A stretch of 64,000 bases of DNA. It comes from a virus (Duplodnaviria > Caudoviricetes). The stretch is taken from positions 68,784-132,783 of IMG/VR virus record IMGVR_UViG_3300033121_000719; one strand, 5' to 3'. A program made the position numbers and the translations under genes. Each line of letters begins with the position of its first letter. The stretch's first letter is position 1. Positions 4,537-53,890 of the stretch are shown here, piece by piece. Below the pieces are notes generated by a model. The model ran no database searches. It saw only the letters and a list, made by a program, of their open reading frames with translations, and had not been told where the DNA came from.

Positions 4537-4839
4537 CTACTTTTTGTCATTGTCTATGTCCTTGTTTTTTATTTTTGTTATTAATATCTCTAACCTTAGT
4601 AATAATCTTTGGATTTTAATGTCAACTCTTTCCATTAGATTCAATGATTCATAATTATAACAGTCAGTAAAAAATTCTTTATCACCAATATATTCACTAA
4701 TATATCCAGTAACATACTGGTATCCATAGTGTTTATCTGGACAATTATAAGATTCTTCCATTAAACACCATCCATCCAGTACTTCTTGGTAATGATCCAT
4801 TTCTTTATTGCAAACTGGACAATTCATATTAAAAACCAA
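4537..4839 (-). CDS. Hypothetical protein with CxxC
   Basis: ORF track; co-oriented with neighbours. Confidence 0.5.
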   Translation of the reverse strand: MVFNMNCPVCNKEMDHYQEVLDGWCLMEESYNCPDKHYGYQYVTGYISEYIGDKEFFTDCYNYESLNLMERVDIKIQRLLLRLEILITKIKNKDIDNDKK

Positions 4840-4967
4840 ATATTTTCATTACAGCAAATATCTGTAATAATGAGATTAAAATTCCAATAATAATTATAGC
4901 GTAAGACATAAATTTGATTTGTTTATATCTCTTGAACATCATACCTCCTATAAAAATGAATTTTATC

Positions 4968-5513
4968 TTAAATAATTTTGTGACATAACCCAAGTTTTAA
5001 AGCATCTTGCGCTGGAATAAACCAATCCGCTTTTCTTTCTTTATAAGAATTTAATTTTTCTTGCATGATGTTTGAGTTTTCTGTAATTATGTTGTCATAT
5101 AATACTTGAAGTCTTTCCATTTCAGATACTTCTTGCTTGATTCCTTCTAGTTTATCTCCAATAAAATTTGAAACTTCATGATATAAGAGTGTAGCGTTTT
5201 TGCCCATATACCTATTCTTTGATGCCATAAATATCCATAACCCCATGCTCATAGCTCTTCCAAAACAATATGTATGAATTGGGGTGGAATTGTTAATAAT
5301 CAAATCAACTAAAGATAATCCGTCATAAACACTTCCTCCACCAGAATTTATATATAGACAAATTGGCTCCATTTTAAAGTTTCTAAATGTTTCAGCCTTA
5401 CATTTATCATCATACGTAATGTCAAAAATCTTGTTAACAACACCGTCTATCGTAGAAGCATTGATATATCCAGACAAAAATATATTTTTGTTTTTTGAAA
5501 TATCTTCCCACAT
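4968..5513 (-). CDS. clpP: ClpP-like serine protease
   Basis: LYINSGGGSV, GRAMSMG (catalytic Ser), LLYHE, DWFIPAQDALKLGL. Confidence 0.8.
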   Translation of the reverse strand: MWEDISKNKNIFLSGYINASTIDGVVNKIFDITYDDKCKAETFRNFKMEPICLYINSGGGSVYDGLSLVDLIINNSTPIHTYCFGRAMSMGLWIFMASKNRYMGKNATLLYHEVSNFIGDKLEGIKQEVSEMERLQVLYDNIITENSNIMQEKLNSYKERKADWFIPAQDALKLGLCHKII

Positions 5514-5563
5514 ATCTTATTCTCCTTTATAAATTCGTACTTTTATTGGTTTTTTATACACCG

Positions 5564-5598
5564 TATATGGGGGTGTAATATAACTTAACCCCCATATA
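5564..5598. terminator. Stable hairpin (terminator-like) between two 18-bp sites
   Basis: TATATGGGGGT...ACCCCCATATA 11-bp stem. Confidence 0.55.
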
Positions 5599-5632
5599 TA
5601 CAGGTGGTTAAACACATAAAATATTTGTTTTA

Positions 5633-5950
5633 TTATAAAACTGTATTTTCATTCCCAATTCTATCACAATCATCACATAAAGTCAATAACCAACTACCAT
5701 TACGCAATCTTCCTTCTTTACCACATCTTTCACAGGTTATTGCGCTTTTATTTTCTGCTTCCTGAATTAGTTTATCAAACTCAGGAGTAGACCAATTGAC
5801 ATATGCTCTCAAAGTACCAAATTTCTCTTTTATTTGAACAAATTTTATATCATCAGGTTTGTTATCGTATAGAAAATTAATAATACCAGACCAACCAATA
5901 CCAACACAATTTAAAGCATCTTCTCTATCAATATCTCCATATCCACTCAT
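5633..5950 (-). CDS. Conserved phage hypothetical protein
   Basis: VQIKEKFGTLRAY and C-terminal CERCG...LCDDC, typical of a phage protein family. Confidence 0.6.
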   Translation of the reverse strand: MSGYGDIDREDALNCVGIGWSGIINFLYDNKPDDIKFVQIKEKFGTLRAYVNWSTPEFDKLIQEAENKSAITCERCGKEGRLRNGSWLLTLCDDCDRIGNENTVL

Positions 5951-7562
5951 AGTTCAGTCTCCTGTAATTCTTGATACACACAATTTATTGTTTCATTTGT
6001 GCTTGCATCAACAGCAACAAGATTTGATTCTGGTTCTAATTCTTCAAAAGGAACCAATGAAAAATACCATTCAGATTCGTCATCGTCTTTGTGTAAAAAT
6101 AGTTTCATAAAACGCTCTTTTCATTTATTATCGTCATAAATATAGCACATATCATTTGTATTAGGACAAAAATAAAAACCATGATAAGGTAGATTCATAT
6201 TTGTATCAAGAACTTTTAGATACTCGTTTACCTCATGAGATTCTCCGCAAGACTGACATTTGTCAATTTTTATCCACTTTAAAGCATGCGTACTTTCACT
6301 TAGTTTAATTCCCGTTTTAGCGTCTCTCAATGTTATTATAGCTGAATTGATTAAGAATTTTTTCATTTTAAATACACTTGTTCAACGACATAATTATAGT
6401 CAGGACTTGTATCTCTGTCAACAAAAATAGACGCTACTTCTGATACTTTTTCATCTTGAGAAATATGTTTTACGTCACTCTCTCCATAACCAGCTATAAT
6501 TAGGTCTACAATCTGTACATACAGCTCATTTAGTTTCATAAAACTCTCCTTTTATTTTCTATAATCTTTCACAATTTTATATTCACCTTCTCGCAAATAA
6601 CACCACCTATCAAAACCATCGTAATAATAAATAGTATTGTCTTTATCTATTTCTTTTACTAAAACAATCTCTCCAACACCATTCCCAAAACAAATAGTTG
6701 TTATTTCTGCTCTTAGAATTGTTTTGCCTCTTTTTTCTCTCATAAAACTTTTCTTTTATTGTAATAAAAGTCCTTTTTTATACTTCTTAAACTTCGCTTT
6801 TGAATCAGGTACAAGTTTCTTTTCATGCTGTTCATGTTCCCATTCAAAGATTTCTTCGCAAAGCGCACAACCAGCGTGTCCATTACAGCTATTATTCCCA
6901 CATTGAGGACATATCACCATTGGGCCTTCGCAATAATCACACCATGACCATTCAAATTGTTTATCATTCATGTTTTCTTGCAACATTTTCCCACCTTCAA
7001 TAGCAGACGATAATAATTTTTTAAATATTTTATTTTTCATAATCTATCCTATAAAAGAGCGTTTTTATTACTCATATTTATAAAAAACAGCAACAACAAA
7101 TCGTGAATTAATATCCATAACTACACGATTATTTTCATCATAAACAAGGTATTGTTGATTGGTTGTATAATCTATTCTAACATGATTATCTTCTTTTGCA
7201 TAGATATAACCCAAGTCAAGAACATATAACGATTCTATTTTCCACATATTTTCTCCTATAAAAGTACATTTTTATTCATCTAAAATTGATTCAATGCAAG
7301 TCTTTTTGTGACCTTCTGTTCTCATATTGTTGCCACACTTTTTACAGGTGTTGTAATAATGATCTTCGCCTTCCATTCTCCAAACAATGTTTCTTATTTC
7401 GTCTAAAGTAAATTTGCCCTTCATATAAACAACTATGTCAGAATCCTCATTTTTTATATCAACTACATTTTTATCAAAATGCAAATTGAAAAATTCTTTT
7501 AATCCATCACCTGTTTCTTCTGGTGTTCCTCTTAGCATATTTTCTCCTATAAAAGATAGTTT

Positions 7563-7925
7563 TTATTTTATTTTTGCAAATTCTACACACAAAATATTTT
7601 TTATCTTGAATACATTTTTGAATTCCATATTAGGATAGGCTTCAGACTTTACGGCAACTTCATAATTTAAAAATTCATAATCTTTGTATTGTTCATCATA
7701 TAAAAATATTGTGCCAAAAAATTCGTTGTTGACAGCTTTAGTAACTTTTGTTATAACGCCTATTACAATGGACTTATCATCTTGAGGTACGTTATCATGT
7801 ACTAAATTAATTACAACAGGAATATCTTTTAATTTATCCGCTATTTCAGAGTATGTACTACTAATCCATATATTAGGATTATTCATATCAAATATTTTTT
7901 TATCTTTTACTGTTATTGATTTCAT
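7563..7925 (-). CDS. Hypothetical protein flanked by 18-bp sites
   Basis: ORF with AGGAGA RBS; stop codon lies inside the 7549 site. Confidence 0.6.
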   Translation of the reverse strand: MKSITVKDKKIFDMNNPNIWISSTYSEIADKLKDIPVVINLVHDNVPQDDKSIVIGVITKVTKAVNNEFFGTIFLYDEQYKDYEFLNYEVAVKSEAYPNMEFKNVFKIKNILCVEFAKIK

Positions 7926-9212
7926 ATTTTCTCCTATGAAAAGTATAATCTATTACCTGTTAATCACGATTTTAGGCGTTTAAGTATAATTAATTATACT
8001 ATATTACTTTTGTTTGTCAACCCATTCAACAAGTCTTTTCAAATCATCAATCAACTCTTGAATTTCTGATATTGACATTTTGCACAACAACGAATTATCT
8101 GGTGATCCAATATCAATCAATAAGTTACATTGCGTCTCACCATCTACAATATCCGTGATGTTATAATCAACAAGTTTCATCCCTTAACTCCATTTGTGTA
8201 AATAATATACCCTTTATTTGTTCCATGACCACAACATGCAGATATGGCGTCTTTTATATAGCCAAAACAGGCATCATATCCTTCTGGTGTTGGCGGTAAT
8301 CCACAATATTTACAAACTCTCAAATCGTTCCAATTAACGGGATCATTGTTATCTGAATATTTCCAAAGCCTGTCTGTTTCGTCAAAATAAATTTCATAAC
8401 CTCTTGAATATGACGTTGCAGTCATTTTTCTCCTTTACGTATAAACAACACCATAAATAGTGCCTGTTTCTGGAACAACCACAATAACAACACAATCATT
8501 TCTTCCATCGTAAAACATTTTCTTATATCTTTCTGCTCTTTCATCATCAACAATAACTTTATGTATACCAAAGAGTTCATGACTATTAAACTGTTGTATA
8601 AACGTAAGTTCATCACATACAATGTAAGAATTTTTACACCCATTCAATGATTCAATTCTTTTTAAAAGTTGATACGTACTAGTATAACTAAATCCGTAAA
8701 TTGAATGGTAATTATCTGATATAAACTTTTCGTTATCGTACATTTTTCTCCCAATAAATCTAATTTTTTATTTCTTTTAAGATTAAGATAAAAACAATAC
8801 ATTGCCTTTATCTTCATACCAATCCCTAACCTCTAACCAATTATCAGCAGAAGTTTCAACTATCTCTTCGGAATCATTATCATACATGCAAACATCAATG
8901 TCTCCATATTTTAATTTTACACTATATAAAAAATCAATCCAATCACTAATTTTTGATTTCATAAAAATCCTCTTTTATTTCTTGAAAATAAACATACGAT
9001 CATCATTAAAAATAATATCTGCCATATCAGATTCAATAACAAGATTACCTTCAATATTTTTTTTAAAATAACAATAATCTTTTATAGCATCAATAACCTC
9101 TGAAACCCCTACAATATCTAATAATTGATTTAATGCCTGAGTTCCAGAATAATCAGTATAATTAACTAACACCCTATCTAATTCGCTCATAAAAAATAAA
9201 TTTTATGTGGTT

Positions 9213-10118
9213 TTAATTATATTTTATATTGATAAAATCCAAAACTTCACCCAATTTTAATTTATTTATACAATAATCCCATAATTTTGGATGAGTTAAT
9301 TTCATTTTTTGAAATCTATTCGGCTCATTCTCTGAATCAACACCAAACATACAAAACATACAGCCTGTTCTATCATAACCCATATCATAAATCTTAGAAT
9401 ATGGTAAATTATATTTATGGATATATTCCCATATGTCTTTTTCTGTCCAAAAAGCTAAAGGTGTAGAATTAGGATTATTTTTATCAAACGCATTACAACC
9501 ATATTTCATATAATTTGTTTTTCTTCTAAAACTTTCTTCAGTCATTACTCCAATAATTGGTTTTCTATTTGTTTCTTTTTCATATTGCTTCATTGGAAGT
9601 TTTTTCAAAATATTACAACATATATGTGAAATTTTAAATGGAGCGTCAATTAAAAATTTCCATTTTTCACTTATTTTAAAATTGCCTTTATAACTTCCAT
9701 TTAATCTTAAATCTTTTAATTTTTCAGAATTAGTATTTCGACACTCATATAAATATTGACTTTGTGTTTTACTGATAATTGGATATCCATATTGTTCAAT
9801 TACTTGTTTAAAATTCATCTTTGGTTTTACCCAAACAACATTGTCAATAGTTTTTACAAATTCTCTAATTTCTGGATATTCTAATCCTGTATCTGAAAAT
9901 ACAGCAGGAACTAATTTTGAATCTGGAATAAACGCTCTATTTCTAACTAAATCTAAAAGCACAGTAGAGTCTTTTCCACCAGAAAAAGCAACATAAACTT
10001 GACCATTATAATGATTATACCATTGTTCTATTTTTTCACAAGACATATCAATCTTGTCTTGCAAAGGTAAAGATAAACGATATTGTAATTCTTCTTTAGT
10101 TACCTTGTTATCTACCAA
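9213..10118 (-). CDS. PAPS-reductase-family (PP-loop) protein
   Basis: VAFSGGKDS, DTGLEYPE, CCNILKK, RTGCMFC. Confidence 0.85.
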   Translation of the reverse strand: MVDNKVTKEELQYRLSLPLQDKIDMSCEKIEQWYNHYNGQVYVAFSGGKDSTVLLDLVRNRAFIPDSKLVPAVFSDTGLEYPEIREFVKTIDNVVWVKPKMNFKQVIEQYGYPIISKTQSQYLYECRNTNSEKLKDLRLNGSYKGNFKISEKWKFLIDAPFKISHICCNILKKLPMKQYEKETNRKPIIGVMTEESFRRKTNYMKYGCNAFDKNNPNSTPLAFWTEKDIWEYIHKYNLPYSKIYDMGYDRTGCMFCMFGVDSENEPNRFQKMKLTHPKLWDYCINKLKLGEVLDFINIKYN

Positions 10119-10470
10119 ATACTCCTCCTTAAAAACCCAATAAAAGGTAAATTTTATTTAATTAACCCTTAATTTCTTTCACTTTTTTGTTAGTTCTTCA
10201 ATTTTCTTATTGTTTTTATCAATTGATTCGTCAATTCTTGCTATTATTATCTCTAACTTTATCAATATTTTATTGAGAAAAAGTATCATAATTAGTCACC
10301 ATCAAAAAACAGTACCTTTACACAAAAGATGATAAACAATAATACACAACAAATAAGAATAAAAACAAAAATAAAAAATGTAATATATGGAAAAAACCAC
10401 ACTATCAAAGACAACAAAGATAAACTTCCTAAAACTATTACACTTGATGTAATCCATTTCATCTTTTCGC

Positions 10471-11160
10471 TCATAATTTATCCCTCAAATTTCTTAATCT
10501 ATTCTCAGCTAATTTAAAAACCTCAGTGTCATACTCAACCCCAACAAAGTCTCTGTCGTTTCTGATACACCATTCTCCAGTTGTTCCTGAACCAAGAAAA
10601 GGATCAACCACTAAGTCTCCAATATCAGTAAAGGGAAACAACAAACGGTCAATAAGCTCTATTGGTTTTTGCCATCTTATACAATGTCCATCTTCTTTTT
10701 TTATTCTTTCTTTAGCAACCGTAGTCAAACAAATATCTGTTATTACACTTGTGGCAAGTTTAGTCGTTCTTCCACTTTTGTTTAGCCCCTTGCTTTTTGC
10801 TGTAGCCTTTTCAACTTGAACCCTATCAGGATAGAATTTAAATTTTTTGCCTTTACTAAAAATTAGAATATCATCGTGACATTGACGAAACCTATCTTTA
10901 GGAAAGTTACCAAACTCATTTTTCCAGATTAACCAGTTTACAAAATTAGAATCCTCAAAAGATTGTAAATAACATTTAGCTTCTGCTACACTATGCCAAT
11001 CTGTCATAATAATAAAAATACCATTTTGTTTCAAAAATTTCCAATAGTGGTCAATCCATGAAAAATCTAAGTTCTCGTATATCATGTCAGCAAAAACACA
11101 ATCAACGTATTGACCAGTAAAGTGTAGTGTCATATTGTCTATGTTGTAAATATTGTACAT
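10471..11160 (-). CDS. N4/N6 DNA methyltransferase (beta class), catalytic motif degenerate
   Basis: QKPIELI..., VVDPFLGSGTT; ADMIY in place of DPPY. Confidence 0.7.
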   Translation of the reverse strand: MYNIYNIDNMTLHFTGQYVDCVFADMIYENLDFSWIDHYWKFLKQNGIFIIMTDWHSVAEAKCYLQSFEDSNFVNWLIWKNEFGNFPKDRFRQCHDDILIFSKGKKFKFYPDRVQVEKATAKSKGLNKSGRTTKLATSVITDICLTTVAKERIKKEDGHCIRWQKPIELIDRLLFPFTDIGDLVVDPFLGSGTTGEWCIRNDRDFVGVEYDTEVFKLAENRLRNLRDKL

Positions 11161-11186
11161 CTATTTTTCCTTATAAATTCATCATT

Positions 11187-11705
11187 TTATTTACTTATTT
11201 CTTCAAATATAATCTGTTTTGGCAACATATTTTTACAGATATACACACTTGAGAATGGAGGATTTAAACTTGGTCTTTGTTCTCCGTAATCTTTAAAATA
11301 AGCAATACGTCTATTTAAATACATTATTTCAAAATCATTATCCCTAAACATATTGAATCTTTTTTGACTTTCAAATAATCCTACAACTCCAACCAACATG
11401 GCAAATGGAATATTTAATTCAAAAAGTCTAGCAAAAACATCACCCTTTAAAGAATAAGGAGGATTACTAATAATATAATCTATTTTTATTTGTGGTTGCC
11501 ATTTGAAAAAGTCTTTTCCATCATTAAGATGAGAATATAATACAGTATTGTTTTTACCAATTGTTTTAACAAACAAACTATCCTGCGTATCAAAAGGACA
11601 CCAAACTGTTGTTTTTGGTTTAATATATTTTAATAATGGAGTTATTGCGTATTCTGGTGTATAAAACTCATCATTGCCACTATCTGCCACTTTGTCCATT
11701 TTCAT
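11187..11705 (-). CDS. Small N6-adenine DNA methyltransferase
   Basis: DEFYTP, VWCPFD, IISNPPYS. Confidence 0.75.
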   Translation of the reverse strand: MKMDKVADSGNDEFYTPEYAITPLLKYIKPKTTVWCPFDTQDSLFVKTIGKNNTVLYSHLNDGKDFFKWQPQIKIDYIISNPPYSLKGDVFARLFELNIPFAMLVGVVGLFESQKRFNMFRDNDFEIMYLNRRIAYFKDYGEQRPSLNPPFSSVYICKNMLPKQIIFEEISK

Positions 11706-12183
11706 TGATTGTTTATTCCTTTCTAAGAAACCTAATAAAAATCACATTTCATTTCCAAAAATACTACCAAAACAATAATCACAACGTTGTAACTCATATT
11801 CTGGAATTTCACCATTTCTATAATCTTCAGCTTTGCTTGCAGGAATAGGAACATACACGTTATCTTTGTTTCTATAATATCCAAAACCAAAACATTCTGG
11901 ACAATTTTCATAATGATGCACTTCGCATTTTGTACATAATTTTAATTTCAACATAATTCGTCCTTATGAAATTACCGTTTTATTCCATTAATTTTGCATC
12001 ATCAATTAGTTTACATAAAATTTCTTTAGCAAATTCTTTACCCATTGTTTCAGTATATAATCTAATTTCTGGTTCACCGTATTCGTCACATCCAGAGACA
12101 ATATCTAATTGCCCAAAGTAACCTTTGTCATCACTCCAAGATATACTTAATCCGTCTGAAATTGAAATTTGATAACTCATAAT

Positions 12184-13026
12184 TTATTGTATCCCTTTTA
12201 TATTTTCAGAAATATATTTGTAAATTTTCCACATTGGTAAAACGGGAGTACTTGTTTGTAATACTTTCGATATGTCCCAATTTTTAACACAATTATATAT
12301 TTCTTCTTTTTTGTTTGCATTATTGATTACAAAAATAATTTCTTTTTTATATAACTCATTTTTATCTAAAATTTGTCCACATTTAGCACCCCATGCACAA
12401 ATTTTAAAATCATATTGTTTGTTTTTATAAATTTCAATAGAAGGAGAAGAAGGTGTTGATAAATTATGATCATCATATAAAACAAAATCTTTAAAACTAT
12501 ATCTCTGTTTTTTATTTAACCCTTTTTCTGGTTTTTTGTAAATATTAAAACAACAATGAATATCTCTATCTGTATAAATATTTTTACCCAAATCTTCGCT
12601 ATAAATTAAATCAAATTCATAAAAAATATAAGTATTATTTAATTGACTAATTGGTAAAATAAAAGCAATATAATCTCCCAATTGATAACATTTTTTCATA
12701 AATTTTAATGCTTCATTTAACCTTGCACCAAAAGGAGGATTCCCAATAAATAATCTACCTTCTTTATATGGAAGATTTAACTCTAAGAAATCTTGCTTTA
12801 TAATGGAATCATCCTCTGGTTCTAAATCGTAAGCAATACATCTTTTTATTTTTTTGCTAAACGCTCCATTGCCAGCAGAAGGTTCAATGACTTCCGTTAT
12901 TTTTTCATTCTTTAAAACTTCTCTTGCCTTATCAATACAATACTGTGCGGTTTTGTCTGATGTATAATATTTATCAAGATGTAATTTGTTTGAATTTTGT
13001 GTCAAATCTCGCTTAAATTGTTGCAA
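12184..13026 (-). CDS. N6-adenine DNA methyltransferase
   Basis: LDKYYT, IEPSAGNG, IGNPPFG; TTG start at 13026 after a GGAGG RBS. Confidence 0.75.
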   Translation of the reverse strand: MQQFKRDLTQNSNKLHLDKYYTSDKTAQYCIDKAREVLKNEKITEVIEPSAGNGAFSKKIKRCIAYDLEPEDDSIIKQDFLELNLPYKEGRLFIGNPPFGARLNEALKFMKKCYQLGDYIAFILPISQLNNTYIFYEFDLIYSEDLGKNIYTDRDIHCCFNIYKKPEKGLNKKQRYSFKDFVLYDDHNLSTPSSPSIEIYKNKQYDFKICAWGAKCGQILDKNELYKKEIIFVINNANKKEEIYNCVKNWDISKVLQTSTPVLPMWKIYKYISENIKGIQ

Positions 13027-13068
13027 AATACCTCCTTTTTGATTTAAAAACCACATAAAAATGGGATT

Positions 13069-13896
13069 TTATTGGGTTAATTCTATCCTTTTTCTAATTA
13101 TATCACAATATTCACTACTCATTTCGCTTCCAATAAATTTTCTATTGTTTAATTTTGCCATTTTTAAAGTTGTACCACTTCCACAGAATGGATCATAAAC
13201 AATATCATTTTCATTAGACCAAGATAAGATATGATCTTCAGCAAGTTTCTCTGGAAATGTAGCAGGATGTTCAAATGAAAATTTATCTTTAGATGAAACC
13301 ATATATCCAGAATTATAAAACCAAACATTAGATTTTGTTTTGTCTAATTTCTGTCCTGAATTTTCAATTCGCTTCAACATTCTATCATCTGAATCTGCTC
13401 TGGCAGTTGTCCCATCTTTGTTTCTGAAAGACTTTGACGCAAACTTTATACTACCTTTTTTAATTTTTTCTATTTCTTTTTCAGATTTAGATTCTTTTAA
13501 GGGATTGAATGTATTAACATTTCCTTTACTAAATACAAACATAAATTCAAATTGTTGATTATATCTTACATTTGCAGGGAAAGGACAATTATTTTTAGCG
13601 TAGATCATTGTATCCCAAACATTAAATCCAATGGAATTAAAAAATAAACATTGTTTATATGGTACTAATTCTTCCGTCCCATCTTTTGTTTTATCGCCAA
13701 CCACCCAAACTACTACACCACCTTGTTTTGTTACACGAAATAATTCTTTGGCAATAGATTCAAAATCCCATGTATATTTTTTATAATCTCTAAAATCAGA
13801 ATATGGAGGAGAAGTTACAGTTAAGTCGATAAAATTATCTTCCATTTTACGCATTGTTTCTAAACAATCCTCGTTATAAATTGTATTTATTTCCAA
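13069..13896 (-). CDS. N4-cytosine/N6-adenine DNA methyltransferase (beta class)
   Basis: VTSPPY, HPATFP, YDPFCGSGTT. Confidence 0.9.
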   Translation of the reverse strand: MEINTIYNEDCLETMRKMEDNFIDLTVTSPPYSDFRDYKKYTWDFESIAKELFRVTKQGGVVVWVVGDKTKDGTEELVPYKQCLFFNSIGFNVWDTMIYAKNNCPFPANVRYNQQFEFMFVFSKGNVNTFNPLKESKSEKEIEKIKKGSIKFASKSFRNKDGTTARADSDDRMLKRIENSGQKLDKTKSNVWFYNSGYMVSSKDKFSFEHPATFPEKLAEDHILSWSNENDIVYDPFCGSGTTLKMAKLNNRKFIGSEMSSEYCDIIRKRIELTQ

Positions 13897-14091
13897 TATT
13901 TCCTCCTAAATTTTAAAACCCAATAAAACTTCACTTTTATCTATTTTTATCTTCATATTCTTCTGGATTATTTCTGTAAAACCACGCTACGATGTTTAAT
14001 CCAGTTTCAGAATATGGAAGTTTGAACAATATATCTCTTACGATACTCCACACAAAAATAAAGATAAAATAATTATAGGCTCTTTTTATCA

Positions 14092-14499
14092 CTACTTTCT
14101 TCTTTCTAATTTTACCGTAGCAGTTGGCTCTGTTTTAGATACGACAATGGGTTCAATTTTAGCTTCTTTACATACTTCTGCATAGTTGACATTGACAACT
14201 TTATAAGTACATTCTTCTATAATATCAGGGTCTACTTTTGCAATCTCAACAACAGCTTTCCAGTCTGTCATTTTATCTATCTTTGAATGTTTTTGAATAA
14301 TCTCTTTTGGTGCTGTCTTTCCAGCAGTTTCATAATCATATGTTCTTCTACCATTAGAATACGTAACTCTGCATCCACCAACCAGTTGAGTTTTTTGCAG
14401 TTTCAACACTTCTGCTTGAATTTCCTGTTCTAGTTCGTCTAACTCAATCTTGCGTCTTTCCCACATCAACATTTTCTCTGCCAATTCCGTTGAATCCAT
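14092..14499 (-). CDS. Hypothetical protein
   Basis: ORF with AGGAGA RBS. Confidence 0.6.
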   Translation of the reverse strand: MDSTELAEKMLMWERRKIELDELEQEIQAEVLKLQKTQLVGGCRVTYSNGRRTYDYETAGKTAPKEIIQKHSKIDKMTDWKAVVEIAKVDPDIIEECTYKVVNVNYAEVCKEAKIEPIVVSKTEPTATVKLERRK

Positions 14500-16332: not shown

Positions 16333-17205
16333 CTAAATCCTATACTTTAAATTTTGAGTATCAAGTGCTTCGTCAAGAACTTTATTTTTGAGGTGGGCAT
16401 ATTTTATAGTTGTATTTATACTTGAGTGTCCTAATGCCGCCTGTACGATTGAAAGGTTGATGTTTTCTCCAATGAGATTTGCTGTGAAAGTGTGTCTCAT
16501 TGTATGAGCATGAATTTCATTTATTCTTTCCTCTGAAAAACCAGCTTTCCTCATTAAGGATGAAACTCTAAATCTAAGTCCTTGACCAGTAAATTGTGTT
16601 CCAATTTGAGTTACAAAAACATATGGTACTGAATTTCCAAATTTTCTATTTCTAATTACAATATATTTTTGCAATAAGTCAAAGACTTCTGACGTTAGTT
16701 TTATAACTCTTTCTTTATTTCCTTTTCCAATTATATGAATTCTGTCTCCCTCAATTTGATCTATTCTCAAATTACAAAATTCACTGTTCCTCATTCCAGT
16801 AGTTATCAAAACCATAAAAATAACTTTATCATCATATCTTTTGCAGTTGTCTAAAACTGCTTGAATTTCTTCATCACTCAAGAAAGCCTGTTCTCTATGT
16901 GGAACCTTCAAGGCTCTAATTTCTTTCCAATTATTTTCTGAAATTTTCTTTCTTGATTTTAAGAAGTCAAAAAACACTTTGATTCCCATTATTTTTAGGT
17001 TTATTGACGAAGCACTTAAACCTGCTCTTTTTAGAGCAATCTGATAATCAAAACAGTTGTCAACTGTCATATTATTCAACTGCTCAACGTTATCAACATG
17101 AAAAAAACTAAGCATTTCTTCAATTGCTTTTCTATATGTCTTTATGGTATTTTCAGATTTGTCAAGAGACAAACTATTTATGTATTGTTCAAGTTCCGTA
17201 AGCAT
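16333..17205 (-). CDS. XerC/D-like tyrosine recombinase
   Basis: SAM-like N-domain; TGMRNSE, GKGNKER, HTMRH, LGH...TIKY catalytic residues. Confidence 0.9.
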   Translation of the reverse strand: MLTELEQYINSLSLDKSENTIKTYRKAIEEMLSFFHVDNVEQLNNMTVDNCFDYQIALKRAGLSASSINLKIMGIKVFFDFLKSRKKISENNWKEIRALKVPHREQAFLSDEEIQAVLDNCKRYDDKVIFMVLITTGMRNSEFCNLRIDQIEGDRIHIIGKGNKERVIKLTSEVFDLLQKYIVIRNRKFGNSVPYVFVTQIGTQFTGQGLRFRVSSLMRKAGFSEERINEIHAHTMRHTFTANLIGENINLSIVQAALGHSSINTTIKYAHLKNKVLDEALDTQNLKYRI

Positions 17206-26345: not shown

Positions 26346-27642
26346 ATCCTTTTAAAACATCTTCAACATAATTGAAAATATCATCATCATATAGAGGCGA
26401 AGCACCAATAAAGAACACGTGGTCTAAGACTTTATTTGCCTCTGGATATTCTCTAAAATCTCCTAAATGAGCAAACCCCTTGTGCATAAGAATATTGCCT
26501 GCAAAATAATGTCTTGTCTGAATAAGGTTTGTTTCAAGATAACTTAATAGTTTATGTTTTTGTTCAGAGTTGTTACATACAATAGGTGTTCCAAACCAAG
26601 ATGTTTCAGCACCGCCAATTTCGCTTGGAATATGGACATTGGTTACATATTTTAAAATTAAATTAGACAAAACCTTCTTGCTCTTTTTACGATTTTCATG
26701 TATGCTGTCTATTTTATTTAGTTGTTCCAAACCAATAGCACCCTGCAAATCCAATGGTTGCAAATTATATCCCATTCCAGTAAATACGTATTTATGGTCA
26801 ACCACACCATCATAGTTTTCAATCCATTTATCAAAACGATGTTTGCAAATCCCATCTGGAAGTAAGTTTTCAGTACCAGAACATACACAACCTCTTGCCC
26901 AAGTGCTATAATTTCTTGCATAGTTAATAATGTTTCTGTTATCTGAGATAACCATTCCACCATGAATGGTGGAAATATGATGAGCCGCATAGAAACTGTT
27001 GCTTGAAGCTACTGCATATTCATTTAGGTATTTACCCCTCCACTTGCTTCCAAGACTATCACAGTTATCAAGGATCAATTTAAGACCATGTTTTTCACAT
27101 AAAAACAGGATTTTATCAAAGTCAGGAGGATTCCCTAACACTGGTGAAACAAAAATTGCCTTAGTTTTTGACGTTATTTTTTCCTCAATTTTATCTAAAT
27201 TGAAATTCAGTGTATCCATTTCAATATCTACGAACACTGGAACTAAGCCATTTTGAGGAACAACTGATATTGTAGTTGGAAAACCAACAACTGAAACAAT
27301 AATTTCAGAGCCGTCTTGCCATTCAAAAAATTTCTTCAATGCCGCTATCATAACAAGGTTTGCACTTGACCCTGAATTTACCATAACTCCAAAAAGATTA
27401 TTCACTTTCTTGGCAAACTCAAATTCAAACTTCTGTACGTTTTCACCTGATGCCAGCCATTTTCCAATCAATAGCGTTCTAATTGCGGCAACAACTTCAT
27501 CTTCATCCCAAATTGGCCCACTATAATAAATTGGTGTTTTATGTGGGACAAATTTTCTTCTGCTGTTATACACATATGGCATAACATTGTATTCGCTACT
27601 TATTTTTTCTATCAAGTTTTTTATTTCTAAGTCTATATCCAA
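26329..27642 (-). CDS. rfbH: DegT/DnrJ-family NDP-4-keto-6-deoxyhexose 3-dehydratase (RfbH/E1-like)
   Basis: VNSGSSANL, DNCDSLG, SFYAAHH (His at the usual Lys position), GCVC...C cluster, DHKY, GYNL. Confidence 0.8.
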   Translation of the reverse strand: MDIDLEIKNLIEKISSEYNVMPYVYNSRRKFVPHKTPIYYSGPIWDEDEVVAAIRTLLIGKWLASGENVQKFEFEFAKKVNNLFGVMVNSGSSANLVMIAALKKFFEWQDGSEIIVSVVGFPTTISVVPQNGLVPVFVDIEMDTLNFNLDKIEEKITSKTKAIFVSPVLGNPPDFDKILFLCEKHGLKLILDNCDSLGSKWRGKYLNEYAVASSNSFYAAHHISTIHGGMVISDNRNIINYARNYSTWARGCVCSGTENLLPDGICKHRFDKWIENYDGVVDHKYVFTGMGYNLQPLDLQGAIGLEQLNKIDSIHENRKKSKKVLSNLILKYVTNVHIPSEIGGAETSWFGTPIVCNNSEQKHKLLSYLETNLIQTRHYFAGNILMHKGFAHLGDFREYPEANKVLDHVFFIGASPLYDDDIFNYVEDVLKGYENVR

Positions 27643-46792: not shown

Positions 46793-47843
46793 GTATTTTT
46801 CAAATTTATGAATTTTTGTACCTGAATATATAACCTCATTTTTGATTGATATAAAGCACTATAAACAACGTTTATATCAGGACACAGATTTACCCACCTT
46901 GACTATCAAAATCGTAAAATCGCCTATTTAGAGGGCTTAAACACATATTCTTATAGATGTTTTCAACCCAAATGCCAGAATTTTTTGTATAAAGACTCAG
47001 TAGTATCTATACAGAAAATAGTTATAGACATGGACATTTTTAATGGCAGAATCACATAAGAAACAAGCATTATACAATATGCTATATTGATCCAAGCCTT
47101 GAATATAAAATGCTTAAGACTCATAATTTTCCTCCTATGAAAGTTATATCTTATTCTTGTTCGTCATCCATCATGATTAATGATCTAACTTGTCTAGCAT
47201 AATCCACTCTTCCCTTTTTCCACGATCTTGTATTTATGCCAGCAGTTATTAACAACCAATCTTTCCATGAGATGTGAGAAAAAACAAAAGTAAAGATATA
47301 TTCCAAATCTACTTTATCAAACCCATCCTTAATTGTTTTACTCAAATAAGAATCAAAAGTTTTTGGAACATAAACTGTAACAACTGGAAAGAAACTCCAC
47401 TCATAAGGGGTAATGTTGATGGCATAAGTTTCTTTGTTTTCAGTAATCAAAAAATTGCCATAAGTTAAATTACTGATTTCAATACCAGTGTATTTTTGAA
47501 CCCCTCCAATTTTCTCTTGGTCACATAAAGTACCAATTAGGCGTGCTTCATTAAGCCTATTTATAAAGTGAATTTTTTTATCAGGGCCTTGTAATGATAA
47601 TGGAACCATTTTATCTCCTTATGAAAACGTAGTTTTATTTTCTTTTGAATGTGTTTAATTTATCTACATTTGACCATAATAATATTGTTCTTTTGTCATG
47701 GGCAGACTTAAACCAATGTTCCCCATATGCTCTGGTTGATTCTGTTTCTTCTTTATAAGACATATCTAACCAAGTTGTCAATTTTTTAAGAATGAAAAAC
47801 TTGTTTAAATATATAAATGTGAATTGATTATATAAAGGATTTG

Positions 47844-48260
47844 TCATTTGTGCCATCTTCCTTTGATAATTTCATAAGGTGGTTCTGACCTATTAGCATA
47901 ATCAAACCAATGTTGCTTATGTTGGTTGATAACTTCATCACTCCATCCAATGTTGGTGTAATCAAATGTAACCCTGTTATCAGATAGAGAGACAATACAA
48001 CTACCCACGCTATATCCAGCTATGTGGGTTGCTTCATCTTTCAAACAAGGTATGAGACGATATTCATGATGCCAGTCAGGATGGAATTTTAAAAAAATAT
48101 TGTCGTATATCTCATCACAGACAATTTCAAGTTGACTTCTTTCTGCGTTTTTAGCTCTTTTAGGTGGTCTAACAGGAACAGTTTTATAATATCCATCTAC
48201 ACGATACCTACTACCACGATAAATCATGCCTGTTGCTATCTCTGGACATTCGTGCTTCAT
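47844..48260 (-). CDS. Hypothetical protein
   Basis: ORF track; co-oriented. Confidence 0.55.
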   Translation of the reverse strand: MKHECPEIATGMIYRGSRYRVDGYYKTVPVRPPKRAKNAERSQLEIVCDEIYDNIFLKFHPDWHHEYRLIPCLKDEATHIAGYSVGSCIVSLSDNRVTFDYTNIGWSDEVINQHKQHWFDYANRSEPPYEIIKGRWHK

Positions 48261-50723
48261 ATTCCATCGCCTATTTTAAGAACCCAATTATCATCATATA
48301 GATGCAAAAAATAGGAAAAAGCACAACGATGGTAAATGCAAAAACATATGCTAATGCACTAATTAAACAACCTGAACAACTGTTTTCATCATCCCTTTTG
48401 TAAGGATCATAATGAATGACTCTTCCATCATTTGTTATATGGTCAAGTATCCCTATTTTAAATTCATCAGACATGATACACTCCTATGAAAATTGTGTTT
48501 TATTCAAAATTAGCATCTAGTATTTTGAAATTGGGGTCATCTGATTGTGGGTATAAAGCAATCACTTGAATGAGATATGTGTTATCATCACTCATTTTTC
48601 CATCAGGTGAAACCCAAGTGGCAGTAAATACATAGTTTGCTTTATGGGCAAGCCACCTAATCAACCTACGAATAATTTGTTCTTTGAGAGTAATTTTTCT
48701 TTTCATAAAAGTCACGTTTTGTTGATCTAAATACCAGTCCAATTCTTTGTCTTGGCCTTTGAAAACCTCTTTATTTTGCTTTGCAAACAATGTAAGTTTT
48801 GCCTTCCAATACCTGATAACTGCATTTTCATGGATAAGGCTTGCGTTTTCTCGTTCAACAAATATAATCTTTTGAACAAGTAATGCAATTATGAACAACA
48901 AAATAAATGGTAAAATCCAATAAGTTTCCATAACATCTCCTTATTTGATTGAATCAAGAAAAGATTCTGCGTCACAAGTAACCCACTCTCCATCACGAAA
49001 GAAACTCGTTTCTTTATAATAAAAATCTTTTGAATCAATTTCAGCACCATCTTCCCATGTTTCAATAGAAAGTCCCTCGTCCTCATAATGCTCTTCTTTT
49101 TGGATTTCTTCTTTTGCTTTTTCTTTGATTTTTTCCAAACTTTCAGTTACCAACATAACGTGTTCATGCAGACCAAAATCCTCATACATTCCTAACAACA
49201 CATAAATTCTCATTTTTATTTCTCCTATTCACCAAGAACAATTCCTTTTATTTCAGTTTTGCATACTTTACAAATCATAAATACCTCCTATAATTCAAAC
49301 ATAATGGTCATTGTATAATCCAAAAATCTGATTGAAAAATCAATTGAACAATATCCTTCCATTTTTGCAAGAGTAAAATATACTGTTGGAAACAGATAAT
49401 AGGAATGGATGAATGTTGCCATCTGACCTACTTTATAAGGCCAAAGAATAATAAAGTGTTTCATAAAACTATCCTTTATTATGCAAGTAAAAATGCTAGT
49501 CCAACAAAAAACCACACTATCAAAGACAACAATATCGCAGGGTCTTTTGTCTCAGTAATCACAATAATAAATATTGGAATCAACATCAAAGCAATTCCCA
49601 TTTTTTCATTATTTTTCATAAAACTACCCTTTCATTTTTTATCTCCAGAAAAAATATCAGCTATCTTATTGATTTGATTGGCGTCAAAGTTCTTTATGTT
49701 GTCGTTCAACAATTCAGCTACTCTGTTCCACCAAATAACAAAGTTTTCTGGTGCAGAATATGATAAAGATTTTTGTATCGCTTCTAATGAGACAACAAGA
49801 TCATGGTTATTGTTATTCAACTCTGCTTTTATTTCTTCAATCACATCATAAAGGTTTCTGTTGCTCATAAAAATCTCCTGTTATTTATCTGACTATTAAT
49901 ATTATACCACATTTACCAAGTGCGAGTCAAGTGTTTTGAAAATTACCAGTTATTCGTCAGCATACTTCCATGAGAAAACTGTTGCAAAGAACATATCATC
50001 AGGATCAGCACATTTTTCAAGTTTAAAAATAATAAATAATCCAGCTTTTCCAGAAGCCATATTGATTTTGATAACATCACCTTCCCTAATTTTACCAGAA
50101 TACCAACCACAAATTTCCATTAAACCATACTCTTGACTATATTCTTTTGTAATTTCATAGCTGTGACCCAAATATGTTCTGGTGTAATCAACAGTTATAG
50201 CATCACTATTGATTGCAATATGTCTTTCTTTTTTAAACAGGTTTTTAATAAATTTAAACATAATTTTCTCCTTAGCTATCCATCCAATGATTGTTGACTT
50301 CCGTTTCTCCTTCATGTAGAGTATAAATTCCATCAACATCATAATTTAAACATTCGTCAATGGTTTTAAACTCTCTCCACACACATTTATTGAATTTTTC
50401 TATTGCTTCTTCTTCTGATAAATTTTCATATACAGAAGACCAATCACCGTATCCATAGTCAGCCTTTATCCAATACATATTTTACGACCTTTCTTTGTTG
50501 AATAATAAATACGTCAAAAATAAAAAAGGAGAAAAGATAAGAAAGATCAATAACCCTAACATAACAACGATCAATGAAGCAATAATAGAATATAGCAAAA
50601 GTATTTTTTGGAATAAATCTCCATCTTTCCAATAGTCAAGAATGTCACCCCAATAAGAAAATGACTTAATTTTATTTTTTTCTTTATCAATGACATTGAT
50701 AAATTCAGTAAACTTGTTCATAG

Positions 50724-51074
50724 TTATCTCCTGTTTTTACATTTTTCGCATCTATTATACAAATCTTTAATATTATATTCAGTGTCAACCTTTGCTTCTT
50801 GTAATTGTTTTGGAAGATAGGAAACATCAGGCTGAATATATGGACTGTTATGGTTAAAACCCCTGCGCTTCATCTCCAAAACTAACTCATCATGCCTCGT
50901 TTCCATTGACAGGGGTTCAATCTGGACAATGGGAATGATTCTGCCAGTGATGTTATGACATTTTACAAAGTTATGACTATGTTTGTGAATTTCATTATGT
51001 TCCCCCAATAGGTGTTTGTCACACAGCAAACTAGGGTCAAGCATCCACATTCTCATAGCATTTTCTTTCCCCAC
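50724..51074 (-). CDS. Pyrimidine-dimer DNA glycosylase/endonuclease V-like protein
   Basis: MRMW...LCDKHLLGEH.EIH, RHDELVLEMKRRGFNH. Confidence 0.7.
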   Translation of the reverse strand: MGKENAMRMWMLDPSLLCDKHLLGEHNEIHKHSHNFVKCHNITGRIIPIVQIEPLSMETRHDELVLEMKRRGFNHNSPYIQPDVSYLPKQLQEAKVDTEYNIKDLYNRCEKCKNRR

Positions 51075-51436
51075 AATTCTTCAACAATATTCTTAGATTC
51101 AACTAATCCAAAGTCTGTTATTTGACGAACAGCTTTAATACGTTCAATAAATCCAGCGTCAATTCCAATGATGCTATCAACCTCTTCTTTGATGCCTTCT
51201 GGTATTTGATTGATAACATCAGACTTTCTTTGTATTGACGCTTCATGTAATAAATTCTCTGACATTCTTGACAACAAACCAGACTGAAAGATATAAAATA
51301 ACACTCTTTTTTCTTCCAAAGATACATCTTTTGGTAAAGAGCTAAGAAAATTTTGATATGCTAAAGTTTCAGCATTGTACAAAAGATTCTCAATTTCTGG
51401 TCTTACTGCGCCATATCTGGTAAAAATTCTGTCCAT
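51053..51436 (-). CDS. Protein with ribosomal L7/L12 C-terminal-like motif
   Basis: IERIKAVRQITDFGLVESKNIVE. Confidence 0.55.
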   Translation of the reverse strand: MDRIFTRYGAVRPEIENLLYNAETLAYQNFLSSLPKDVSLEEKRVLFYIFQSGLLSRMSENLLHEASIQRKSDVINQIPEGIKEEVDSIIGIDAGFIERIKAVRQITDFGLVESKNIVEELWGKKML

Positions 51437-52232
51437 GATATTTGTCTCCTGTTATATAGCATGAAAAAGATAATTTTATTGGGTTAAATATTCCAATATG
51501 GATCAATCCATATTTTTAAAGACCAGTTTTTTCTATTATTTTGCCATTTGGAAGTAGGATAAAATAAAGAAAATACAACCATAGCAATTTGCCATTCATA
51601 AGCTACACTTCCCTTAAATGGTTTACGAATTAAATTTTTAAACATTTTATCCTCCAAACACATGAAAGGTTCATTTCATTATACTAACAATTTGAAATAC
51701 AATAATTTTGCTTTTTTGCTAATGTCTTTGACTTTCACCCATTCAGTAAAGCAGTAATCATAACTGCCTTGAATAGTATATTTTTCACAATCAATTTGAT
51801 ATTTTAAAATGTATTCGTCCATGTTATACCTTTTCTGTTATAGTTAATGAAAAGCTCATTTCATAGGGTAAACTTCTTTTATTTTTTCATGGTCTGTTTT
51901 GACAAAAAATATCATTGAGTTATACCGTCCGTTTTGTGCAGTATGTTCAACCTCTACATTATCATCAAACCTAATCAGAATTTCACCAGCACCATGTTTT
52001 TCATAGTTGAGAGTATTCTCATTACTAATAAACAAGATTCCGTATTCTTCAATATCACCATGAATACTCATGCAATCATTAATAGATAAGTATTTTGGCT
52101 TAAAATCAACGTTCAATACTAGAGTGGTGTCATTGTTTAATAGTTCTGTTATTGAAATAACCCATCCCATATCGTCATTCACCGTTAAGCGATAATTCAT
52201 AACAACCTACATTATTGTCTATAAAAACATAG

Positions 52233-52303
52233 TTCAACATATTGGATTTGAACCAATGACTTCAGGTATATGAGCCTGTCCTCTGCCTCTGAGGTAATGT
52301 TGA
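52233..52303 (-). tRNA. Degenerate tRNA-Met(CAU)-like gene
   Basis: TCAACAT/ATGTTGA; CCTC-AGAGGCA-GAGG; CAGG-CTCATATA-CCTG (8-nt loop); ATTGG-TTCAAAT-CCAAT. Confidence 0.6.
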
Positions 52304-53890
52304 ATCACTTACACAACTTCAATTTTACAATATCAGAACAGTAAATCTCAAAATTACTGCTCTAATTCAACAATTTGAAATTTCCACGTAGGATAAAGCT
52401 CAGAAAGACAGTTTACCCTTCTCTGAGCTTTATTTCTTGAAACTGGAAAACCAATCAAAGTGTCCCAACAATTTGTTGTATCTCGTAAATAGATGATAAC
52501 ACATTTCATGCCCATCTTACATCTCCTTTCAAAACCCTATGAAATACAAGTTTTATTATATCTTTGAAACCCTAATATAAGTTACAACTTTCTGCACTTT
52601 ATACTTAGGATAATCGCTATCTCCAGCTTCATCGTTGAAAGATGAATAATAACTTAAATCTTCAATGATAGGATAGCGTTTTTCTCTTGCGTAATGTTTC
52701 CTTTTGGACTCATCAACCCACGCAAGATATTCTGCTTCACACGAAGGGCAAACTGCTTTAGCGACAATCATTCCTTCATATTCTTCAAAATAAACATGAG
52801 ATTCTTCTTTTGTAATTACGTGAGGAATTTCCACCAATTCAGGAGTATTCCCACAATGAACACAAGTTGTTACACATAAGTTTCTTGACATTTTATCCTC
52901 CAAGATAAAAGTATGTTTTTATTCTAATATTCCAAAATAACCATGTCATTGGCAGGAATAAAAGTTGTTCTGTGGTTTTTGACACAGATTGCATTGTCAT
53001 GTTGATGCACAGCCTTAATAAACTCTTCCGTACTTCCACGAAAAGAATCTACTAAGAAAGTAAACATAAAAAAGTGTTGACCAACTTTAAGTTCTTGAAA
53101 CATTTTTCCGTTCATTACTCACCTCACAAAAGCGTGTTTTGTTACTTTACTTCCTCATACCAATCAAGCGCAGGTAAAGCACCAGCACCATATCCAGCGC
53201 GGTTGAAAGCATCTGCAATTGATGTGCCTTCAACTGTTTCAGTCTTTCCAGTAAGCCAATGCAAAATATATTTTTTCATGTTACATCTCCTATTATAGCT
53301 TTGTTTTGTTCCAATTGTTACTTGTTATCAATGGTGTAATTGATTCCAGTCTTTCATATACTGCCCAAGAGCAAGTAGAAGGACTGATGTTCCAATTCTC
53401 TGCCACTTCCTCCATCAAATTAACTGCGTTGATTGTCAAGAGTTCTGGTTTACAATCGCAACGAGTTTTGTTAGCAATCAAGACATTCCCCTGTCTAATT
53501 GAAATAAAAAAAGACTTCATGAATCATTCTCCTTTTATATGTTTATCAACCCCAATATTCCCAAGAACCTTTACAACCACAATCAACAAGTTTAGTATAG
53601 CCTCTCTTGTCATAGGTGTTATACGATTCTGACCTACAATACACAACAAACTGTGTGTTATTGATAGGTTTAACAATCCAACCAACGGCAGAGTTTACAT
53701 AAAACTTTTCTGCAAATTTATGCTTACATAACCAATCAAGTATTCCCATTTTTGTTTTCAATTCATGGGAATAACAACAATTAGCGTTATCAGTAACCTC
53801 AACACCATAAACCATATTATATCTCCTTATAATTATTGTTTAATGTTTTCACTCTAACAATTAAGCTAGAGTGAAACGAATCAGCAAGAA

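Follow-up and report, generated by a model that had tools for sequence, protein, structure and literature searches.

Palindromic 18-bp sites at the gene junctions of a large phage as candidate joints for the replacement of accessory modules

We analyzed a 64,000-nucleotide stretch of the IMG/VR virus record IMGVR_UViG_3300033121_000719 (the window; bases 68784-132783 of a single 132,783-bp phage genome), in which short palindromes of the form ATRAAA-N6-TTTYAT stand at the junctions of small genes. Positions are those of the window unless the genome is named. The genome, with a G+C content of about 32%, encodes a portal, a tape measure and tail proteins and is siphovirus-like; its structural genes are on the plus strand at genome 4-56 kb, and genome 56-132 kb is taken up by a long run of genes on the minus strand. 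The array of palindromes extends over 5529-13940. An earlier note, made from the letters alone, had counted about 19 inverted repeats with fixed arms and a different 6-bp core each time, and the junction sites in this region are indeed 19, comprising 16 strict matches (5616-13940) and three with one mismatch (5529, 8754 and 11173). The genes between them are accessory, as had been proposed: Pfam assigned two N6_N4 methyltransferases, a PAPS-reductase domain protein and ClpP, and PHROG 799 assigned two further methyltransferases, which brings the DNA methyltransferases to four, while the remaining cargo consists of about 20 small open reading frames (ORFs) without known function.

Read on the transcribed (minus) strand, nine sites have the upstream gene's stop codon in their 5' arm. 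The nine stops listed previously at site+14 (6121, 6552, 6756, 7272, 7563, 8975, 11187, 11980 and 13069) all agree with the ORF table, the one at 11187 being located in the one-mismatch site 11173-11190 (ATAAAA-TGATGA-ATTTAT). The 3' arm supplies the next ATG (TTTTATG) at the sites 6107-6124 (N6 AGAGCG, also containing a TGA stop), 6538-6555 (GGAGAG, which includes the stop and also serves as a Shine-Dalgarno sequence), 6742-6759 (GAAAAG), 8961-8978 (GAGGAT) and 9189-9206 (TTTATT, the downstream edge of the PAPS-reductase module). At some of the other sites an AGGAG-like sequence follows the 3' arm, in line with the earlier description, and at 7258-7275 (ATGTAC) and 7549-7566 (ACTATC) a stop within the arm is followed by AGGAG. 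Two pairs are in tandem: 5616-5633 (CAAATA) is separated by one base from 5635-5652 (ATACAG, with an ATGAAA arm), and 6742-6759 is accompanied by 6764-6781 (AAGGAC), the latter pair possibly being an empty slot. The other sites are 7051-7068 (ACGCTC), 10140-10157 (TTTACC), 11735-11752 (TGTGAT, with an ATGAAA arm), 11966-11983 (CGGTAA, with a TTTCAT arm), 13055-13072 (TCCCAT), 13923-13940 (GTGAAG) and the one-mismatch sites 5529-5546 (ATAAAA-GTACGA-ATTTAT on the transcribed strand), which is upstream of ClpP, and 8754-8771 (ATAAAA-AATTAG-ATTTAT). The ATGAAA variant is found in either arm and the half-site variants are symmetric; because the arms are symmetric, the orientation of a site cannot be read.

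The extended arms noticed before are present, the longer arm AACCCAATAAAA being found at 10134 and 13917 and its inverted copy at 13067. The site 10140-10157 directs the longer arm TTTTATTGGGTT towards the PAPS-reductase gene, and 13055-13072 directs AACCCAATAAAA towards the methyltransferase 13069-13896; the arm halves facing this methyltransferase reach 12 bp (TTTTATTGGGTT ... AACCCAATAAAA). A similar leader, TTTTAT-TGGGTTTTTAA-AGGAGG, opens the four larger modules at 10140, 11735, 13055 and 13923, which suggests that modules bring with them an arm facing inward and a leader of their own.

The strict motif has 28 matches in the window, where 0.40 were expected and the maximum in 100 shuffled sequences was three, consistent with the rough estimate of less than one chance match in the earlier note. 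The scan of the whole genome that the note had called for gave 33 strict matches. The spacing of the arms is nearly always six: in the genome, spacers of N0-N12 other than N6 gave 0-3 matches each, and the perfect form ATAAAA-N6-TTTTAT has 17 matches at N6 and 0-3 at the other spacers. All of the 33 six-base centres are mutually different, even when read on the opposite strand. Between 14 and 47 kb of the window, a region reported as essentially free of sites, the motif scan found three strict sites only, at 27099, 36791 and 43938.

The stop codon in the 5' arm at nine sites, the ATG in the 3' arm at five and the Shine-Dalgarno-like centres, such as GGAGAG and GAGGAT, would suit a motif acting in RNA or translation, either as a small hairpin or A/U-rich signal that couples termination to the next initiation or as a processing mark. 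We regard this as very improbable. The predicted folding is weak (-0.7 to -1.4 kcal/mol), and its z-scores relative to shuffled sequence are close to 0, by which a stable RNA hairpin was rejected, and the common variant ATAAAA...TTTCAT gives an A-C mismatch in the transcript. In G001, an AT-rich IMG/VR contig with the same motif, the sites are 6-8 bases past the stops and 35-50 bases ahead of the starts, and the replacement breakpoints described below would be left unexplained. No terminator-like sites were found in the array. A sigma-70 promoter was likewise rejected as the identity of the motif, as promoter-like matches did not exceed those in shuffled controls and none was at a site; the two perfect sigma-70 promoters of the array (8020-7993 and 6421-6393) are both away from the sites. 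The sole G+C-rich stem-loop of the array is a strong imperfect hairpin in 5547-5615 (CACCTGTATATATGGGGG ... CCCCCATATACGGTG, with a loop of about 14 bases), between the tandem sites 5616/5635 and the site 5529, and it may end a transcription unit before ClpP.

A single public run contains the array, and no RNA data set was listed for it. The run is kept as assembled contigs, which we compared over 4800-14200. Breaks between the main contigs (depth 48-60), with overlaps of 30 bases, fall between the tandem sites 6742 and 6764 and at the sites 8961 (contig break 8951-8980), 11966 (11947-11976) and 13923 (13926-13955). Overlaps of this kind mark the branch points of an assembly graph, and the graph therefore branches at the sites. 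A contig of 421 bases at depth 6 represents a minor allele, which joins 13916-13955 to 11947-11984 and has 343 other bases in place of 1931 bp (11985-13915), the segment of the minus-strand methyltransferases 13069-13896 and 12184-13056 and the ORF 11980-12180. The ends of the joint, 11984 and 13916, are at the sites 11966-11983 and 13923-13940. The summed depths (48.3 + 6) are roughly equal to the depth of the flank (53.8), and because the contig depths add up, a minority of the phage population has a different module between 13923 and 11966. Further contigs diverge at 8773, 8980 (a loose end) and 11171, the edges of the sites 8754, 8961 and 11173, and three diverge away from sites, at 7880, 13520 and 13552. 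Nine of the 12 listed events are within 8 bases of a site, a zone that makes up 6.6% of the region, although the events are partly dependent and reduce to six distinct sites against three off-site events.

Only one of the 20 array proteins, the methyltransferase encoded by 12184-13056 (minus strand), has relatives elsewhere at 90% or higher identity. Its gene shows 86-87% DNA identity with four foreign metagenome contigs from other samples (L141-L144), and the DNA match of these contigs to the phage is confined to this gene, ending at 12183 with the stop codon. In the foreign contigs, the stop codon falls inside a site, ATAAAA-TTTCCA-TTTTAT, which is identical in all four, and L144 departs from L141-L143 right after its 3' arm. 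Because the sole other protein similarity between the foreign contigs and the phage is a 28% match to the phage CCA-adding enzyme, the methyltransferase gene has been transferred between phages that are distant from each other. The corresponding site after the methyltransferase appears to have decayed in this phage. In 12140-12190 a 5' arm ATAAA is retained and is followed by 14 bases that are absent from the foreign contigs; this insertion supplies the ATG of the ORF 11980-12180, and next comes AAATTTCAATTTCAG, which resembles AAATTTCCATTTTAT of the foreign contigs. Elsewhere, the motif was enriched at only two (L062 and L022) of 80 fetched PAPS-reductase loci, and the two phages concerned are distantly related, their structural proteins being about 25-30% identical. 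As most of the 80 loci are without the motif, it appears to be a trait of the phage lineage and not of the PAPS-reductase gene.

Close relatives of the phage are lacking in the phage collection searched (best protein identity, 40%), and IMG/VR provided a single 57% match, on a 6.5-kb contig. Comparison of the encoded proteins indicates a distant relationship to Bacillus phage SPbeta, with homologues of YonO, YomM, YonF and YorL. YonO of SPbeta is a single-chain RNA polymerase that is kin to the multi-subunit enzymes, and its homologue here (genome 4090-6804; without a Pfam match) is 27.6% identical over 511 residues (E 1e-36). Two AT-rich IMG/VR phage contigs, G001 and G002, whose only genes in common with the phage are distant structural ones, also carry the motif; one contains 11 sites (control, 1) and the other 14 sites (control, 0). 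Their spacing is again concentrated at N6 (11 against 0-2, and 14 against 0-4, at other spacers), and most of the sites are directly after stop codons.

In SPbeta itself, TAAAA-N6-TTTTA occurs 34 times, whereas other spacers give 0-3 matches, and the conserved half-site is 11 bp (T-Y-T-R-n-W-TAAAA), which with the six-base centre gives a 28-bp, dif-sized site. We compared a 15-kb early region among nine phages of the SPbeta family. Homology breakpoints were found at 64 of the 66 motif-bearing junctions and at 127 of the 231 motif-free ones, with 3.85 and 1.59 partner events per junction, respectively. Sites with the same centre are identical letter for letter and their order is constant in all nine phages (in SPbeta, GATGCA, GTAAAA, TTGAAG, AGACTG, GATAGT, TATTTA, ACGATA and GTAATT; in six relatives TGTAAG precedes this series, and it is absent there in the compared SPbeta stretch). 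The 250-bp flanks of a given site, on the other hand, form as many as five or six mutually unrelated groups, which are combined in numerous ways, and on either side the conserved sequence reaches no further than the outer edge of the arm. The anti-Gabija genes gad1 and gad2 have been reported as alternatives in one locus (10.1101/2023.05.01.538930). Both begin directly after the same site, that with the centre CAGAGA, and gad2 also ends in the site with the centre ACGATA. No centre is common to the phage analyzed here and G001, G002 or SPbeta, and G001 and SPbeta share one, few sites having been compared.

Modules are thus replaced with breakpoints at the sites in the sample of the phage itself, among the relatives of the shared methyltransferase and in the SPbeta family. 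The earlier note had proposed a system of cassette capture and shuffling, to be given up if indel breakpoints among relatives were unrelated to the sites; the breakpoints fall at the sites, and the part of the proposal that concerns exchangeable modules stands. Because every N6 differs, the standard logic of tyrosine recombinases speaks against shuffling within one genome and for slot-for-slot exchange between genomes. On balance, we consider that the 18-bp palindromes are probably fixed recombination joints, by which the accessory region is split into interchangeable units of one or a few genes each and for which a candidate reader enzyme exists. The arms as binding sites, the centre as the overlap region, the acting enzyme and the matching of centres are what we infer. 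The candidate is a predicted Xer-like tyrosine recombinase (16333-17205, minus strand), in which the R, K, HxxR, H and Y are all present; the sequence matches XerD, XerA and XerH, best XerD and XerA, and in the alignment with XerD (1a0p) all six catalytic residues R-K-H-R-H-Y are kept. In a search of 5.8 billion proteins, its best match was 33%. In G002, a site (ATAAAATGAGATTTTCAT) is located 22 bases upstream of the gene of its homologue (125059-125973), an adjacency that recalls the linkage of site and gene in the XerS and XerH systems. Another tyrosine recombinase of the phage is YomM-like and is encoded in the tail module (genome 32227-33240); the same placement is seen in SPbeta and in one of the two IMG/VR contigs.

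Under the proposed mechanism, a phage-encoded tyrosine recombinase would bind the arms and exchange strands at the edges of the centre. Tyrosine recombinases need matching overlap regions. All 33 centres differ, and by this rule the sites within one genome should not recombine with each other. Each site would instead pair with the equivalent site of the same centre in a co-infecting relative, and two such crossovers would swap the module between them slot for slot. The different centres would therefore keep the array stable and yet permit exchange with relatives at the same slot. The earlier note had appealed to Tn916-type integrases, which tolerate unlike cores; we found nothing in support of this. 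A wider proposal, to which we give somewhat less than even chances, is that the sites constitute a natural, phage-encoded form of recombinase-mediated cassette exchange, with dozens of Xer-like sites that have the same arms and the 6-bp centre as an address, and that it is shared by a broad set of large phages infecting Gram-positive bacteria, SPbeta among them.

Several observations weigh against site-specific exchange at these palindromes. No recombinase gene adjoins the array; the nearest is 2.4 kb off with at least five genes between, and the recombinase of 16333-17205 could instead serve integration or dimer resolution, a ParB-like gene being present in the genome. The conserved part of each arm is 11 bp in SPbeta but 6 bp in this phage, the latter being short for the arm of a recombinase site. 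The upstream edge of the shared methyltransferase is about 17 bases inside the edge of the site and not in it. SPbeta is without the CAGAGA site, which a strict model of matching centres does not explain. Short-homology recombination at 16-18 identical bases would leave identical footprints. In laboratory hybrids of phi3Ts and SPbeta, the crossovers map within long blocks of identical sequence, the outcome expected of ordinary homologous recombination; because these blocks are identical in both parents, the hybrids do not separate site-specific from homologous exchange, and their parent-specific sequence begins and ends at sites.

The long homology used by these hybrids would suit a different explanation, in which the palindromes are bound by a dimeric regulatory or architectural protein (a roadblock, silencer or operator) and the exchange proceeds by homologous or annealing recombination at the islands of identity. 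The same logic has been proposed for the PeSLs of T4-type phages, which are composites of an early promoter and a terminator stem-loop, and for the boundary sequences of lambdoid phages. Conserved arms around a free 6-bp centre would also suit operators of helix-turn-helix proteins, as would the symmetric half-site variants with ATGAAA in either arm, and SPbeta encodes an annealing protein, YorG. SPbeta further offers a precedent in MrpR (YopR), a repressor with a tyrosine-recombinase fold that binds SPBRE operators (PMC10516654). However, most sites occupy the entire gap between stop and start and leave no space for a promoter, and the perfect sigma-70 promoters of the array are elsewhere. 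The motif was also rejected as SPBRE, as the ten MrpR-bound promoters of SPbeta (NC_001884) have a different common motif, roughly AAATA(A/T)ATATGTATA(T)AAT; a TAAAA-N6-TTTTA palindrome occurs near three of the ten (aimR, yorE and yosX), 40-140 bases upstream of the gene. Moreover, an identity of 16-18 bp is short for frequent homologous exchange, yet almost every motif junction of the SPbeta family is a breakpoint, and apart from recombination itself there is no reason for a centre to stay constant when both of its flanks are replaced. We therefore consider this explanation rather unlikely, though it deserves the most weight among the rivals, and the set of repressor operators that the earlier note had named as its alternative gained no positive support.

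The clustering of breakpoints at the sites would also be expected if these were the targets of a phage-encoded site-specific nuclease or nickase, with repair of the break from a co-infecting relative converting the neighbouring genes in a homing-like manner. Dimeric nucleases suit palindromic targets with a free centre, and HNH-type elements are found in the genome, for example in the polymerase gene. Repair tracts, however, should end at variable distances from the cut, whereas conservation in the SPbeta family stops at the arm edges and L144 departs from L141-L143 directly past the 3' arm of their common site, and no nuclease gene is linked to the array. We consider this explanation improbable.

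Other features of the genome were noted besides the array. A second, looser cluster of seven strict sites (47621, 48486, 49618, 51662, 51847, 52539 and 52905) occupies 47621-52922, at junctions of small minus-strand genes, and inside it, at 52232-52303 on the minus strand, ARAGORN predicted a tRNA-like gene whose anticodon (cata) has four bases. The large terminase (YonF-like) is in three ORFs (genome 14242-14649, 14933-15685 and 15775-16791), which match successive parts of SPbeta YonF and suggest introns or other insertions. The phage also encodes a YorL-type polymerase, and a DNA polymerase ORF of 1670 residues (genome 60924-65936, minus strand) additionally matches ribonucleotide-reductase-like and HNH-endonuclease families in its middle, a pattern as expected for an intein or an inserted domain.

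In large phages, accessory and anti-defence genes are replaced rapidly while the gene order remains constant, which has so far been ascribed to illegitimate or short-homology recombination. If the palindromes are addressed joints dedicated to this purpose, they would represent a distinct mechanism of module exchange, by which co-infecting relatives could swap such genes without scrambling or deleting their genomes. This mechanism would explain the alternation of gad1 and gad2 at one locus of SPbeta-like phages and would provide natural sites for engineering such phages. What the window adds is a minor allele bounded by two sites within a single sample.

Among known systems, the integron was the one named in the earlier note, whose label 'integron-like' fits only loosely. 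Integron attC sites are imperfect palindromes of 57-141 bp with R''/L''-L'/R' boxes (GTTRRRY core), conserved in structure and not in sequence; they recombine in the form of folded single-stranded DNA and move together with the cassette, and attI and the Pc promoter beside intI define the platform. The likeness consists in a same-strand array of mostly single accessory genes, with palindromes resembling recombination sites between them and a tyrosine recombinase in the genome. The sites here, however, measure 18 bp, have constant ATAAAA/TTTTAT arms and lack GTTRRRY boxes, and there is no attI/Pc platform, the recombinase being 2.4 kb from the first site and XerD/XerA-like. As to whether the site travels with the cassette, the shared methyltransferase has its 3' site in the foreign contigs, and the PAPS-reductase gene is mostly found without the motif. 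In engineered heterospecific lox or FRT sites, identical arms surround different spacers, only like spacers recombine, and the segment between two sites is swapped and not deleted. That is a two-site laboratory design, whereas the sites here are natural and number dozens, and the matching of their centres is presumed.

The layout of two inverted arms around a 6-bp centre is that of Xer/dif-type sites. The inner arms of difH (AGTTATGAAAA / AAAAGTTTGA), the site of XerH, and of difSL, the site of XerS (PMC5357621), are of the GAAAA...TTTTC type and resemble the A4...T4 around the centre here, and a 6-bp centre has been proposed for difH (PMC5357621, PMC5241119). Each of these, however, is a single chromosomal site beside its recombinase gene that resolves dimers, whereas the phage has 33 sites with 33 different centres. 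The pdif modules of Acinetobacter plasmids are closer in that small accessory modules are bounded by Xer-type sites, many per replicon and in varied contexts, but a pdif site spans 28 bp and has one arm for XerC and a different one for XerD, and pdif sites alternate in orientation and are read by the host XerCD (PMC6449649, PMC13141974). The sites here have symmetric arms, a phage as carrier, an own centre each in a fixed order and a phage-encoded candidate enzyme. One module, that of the methyltransferase 12184-13056, is found in foreign contigs. The SPBRE elements read by MrpR are likewise repeated and intergenic, belong to the same phage group and have a reader with the tyrosine-recombinase fold; they differ in the motif sequence, and the palindromes here overlap stop and start codons. 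The PeSLs of T4-type phages are also short repeated motifs that flank variable small genes and coincide with the boundaries of insertions, deletions and replacements, and they are thought to work through homologous recombination (PMC2839356, PMC4122927). The sites here flank variable ORFs and coincide with replacement boundaries in the same way, and they differ in having neither the promoter nor a stable stem-loop. Our searches of the literature returned no published account of this motif in phages. In layout the palindromes come nearest to Xer-type dif modules, and in role to PeSLs.

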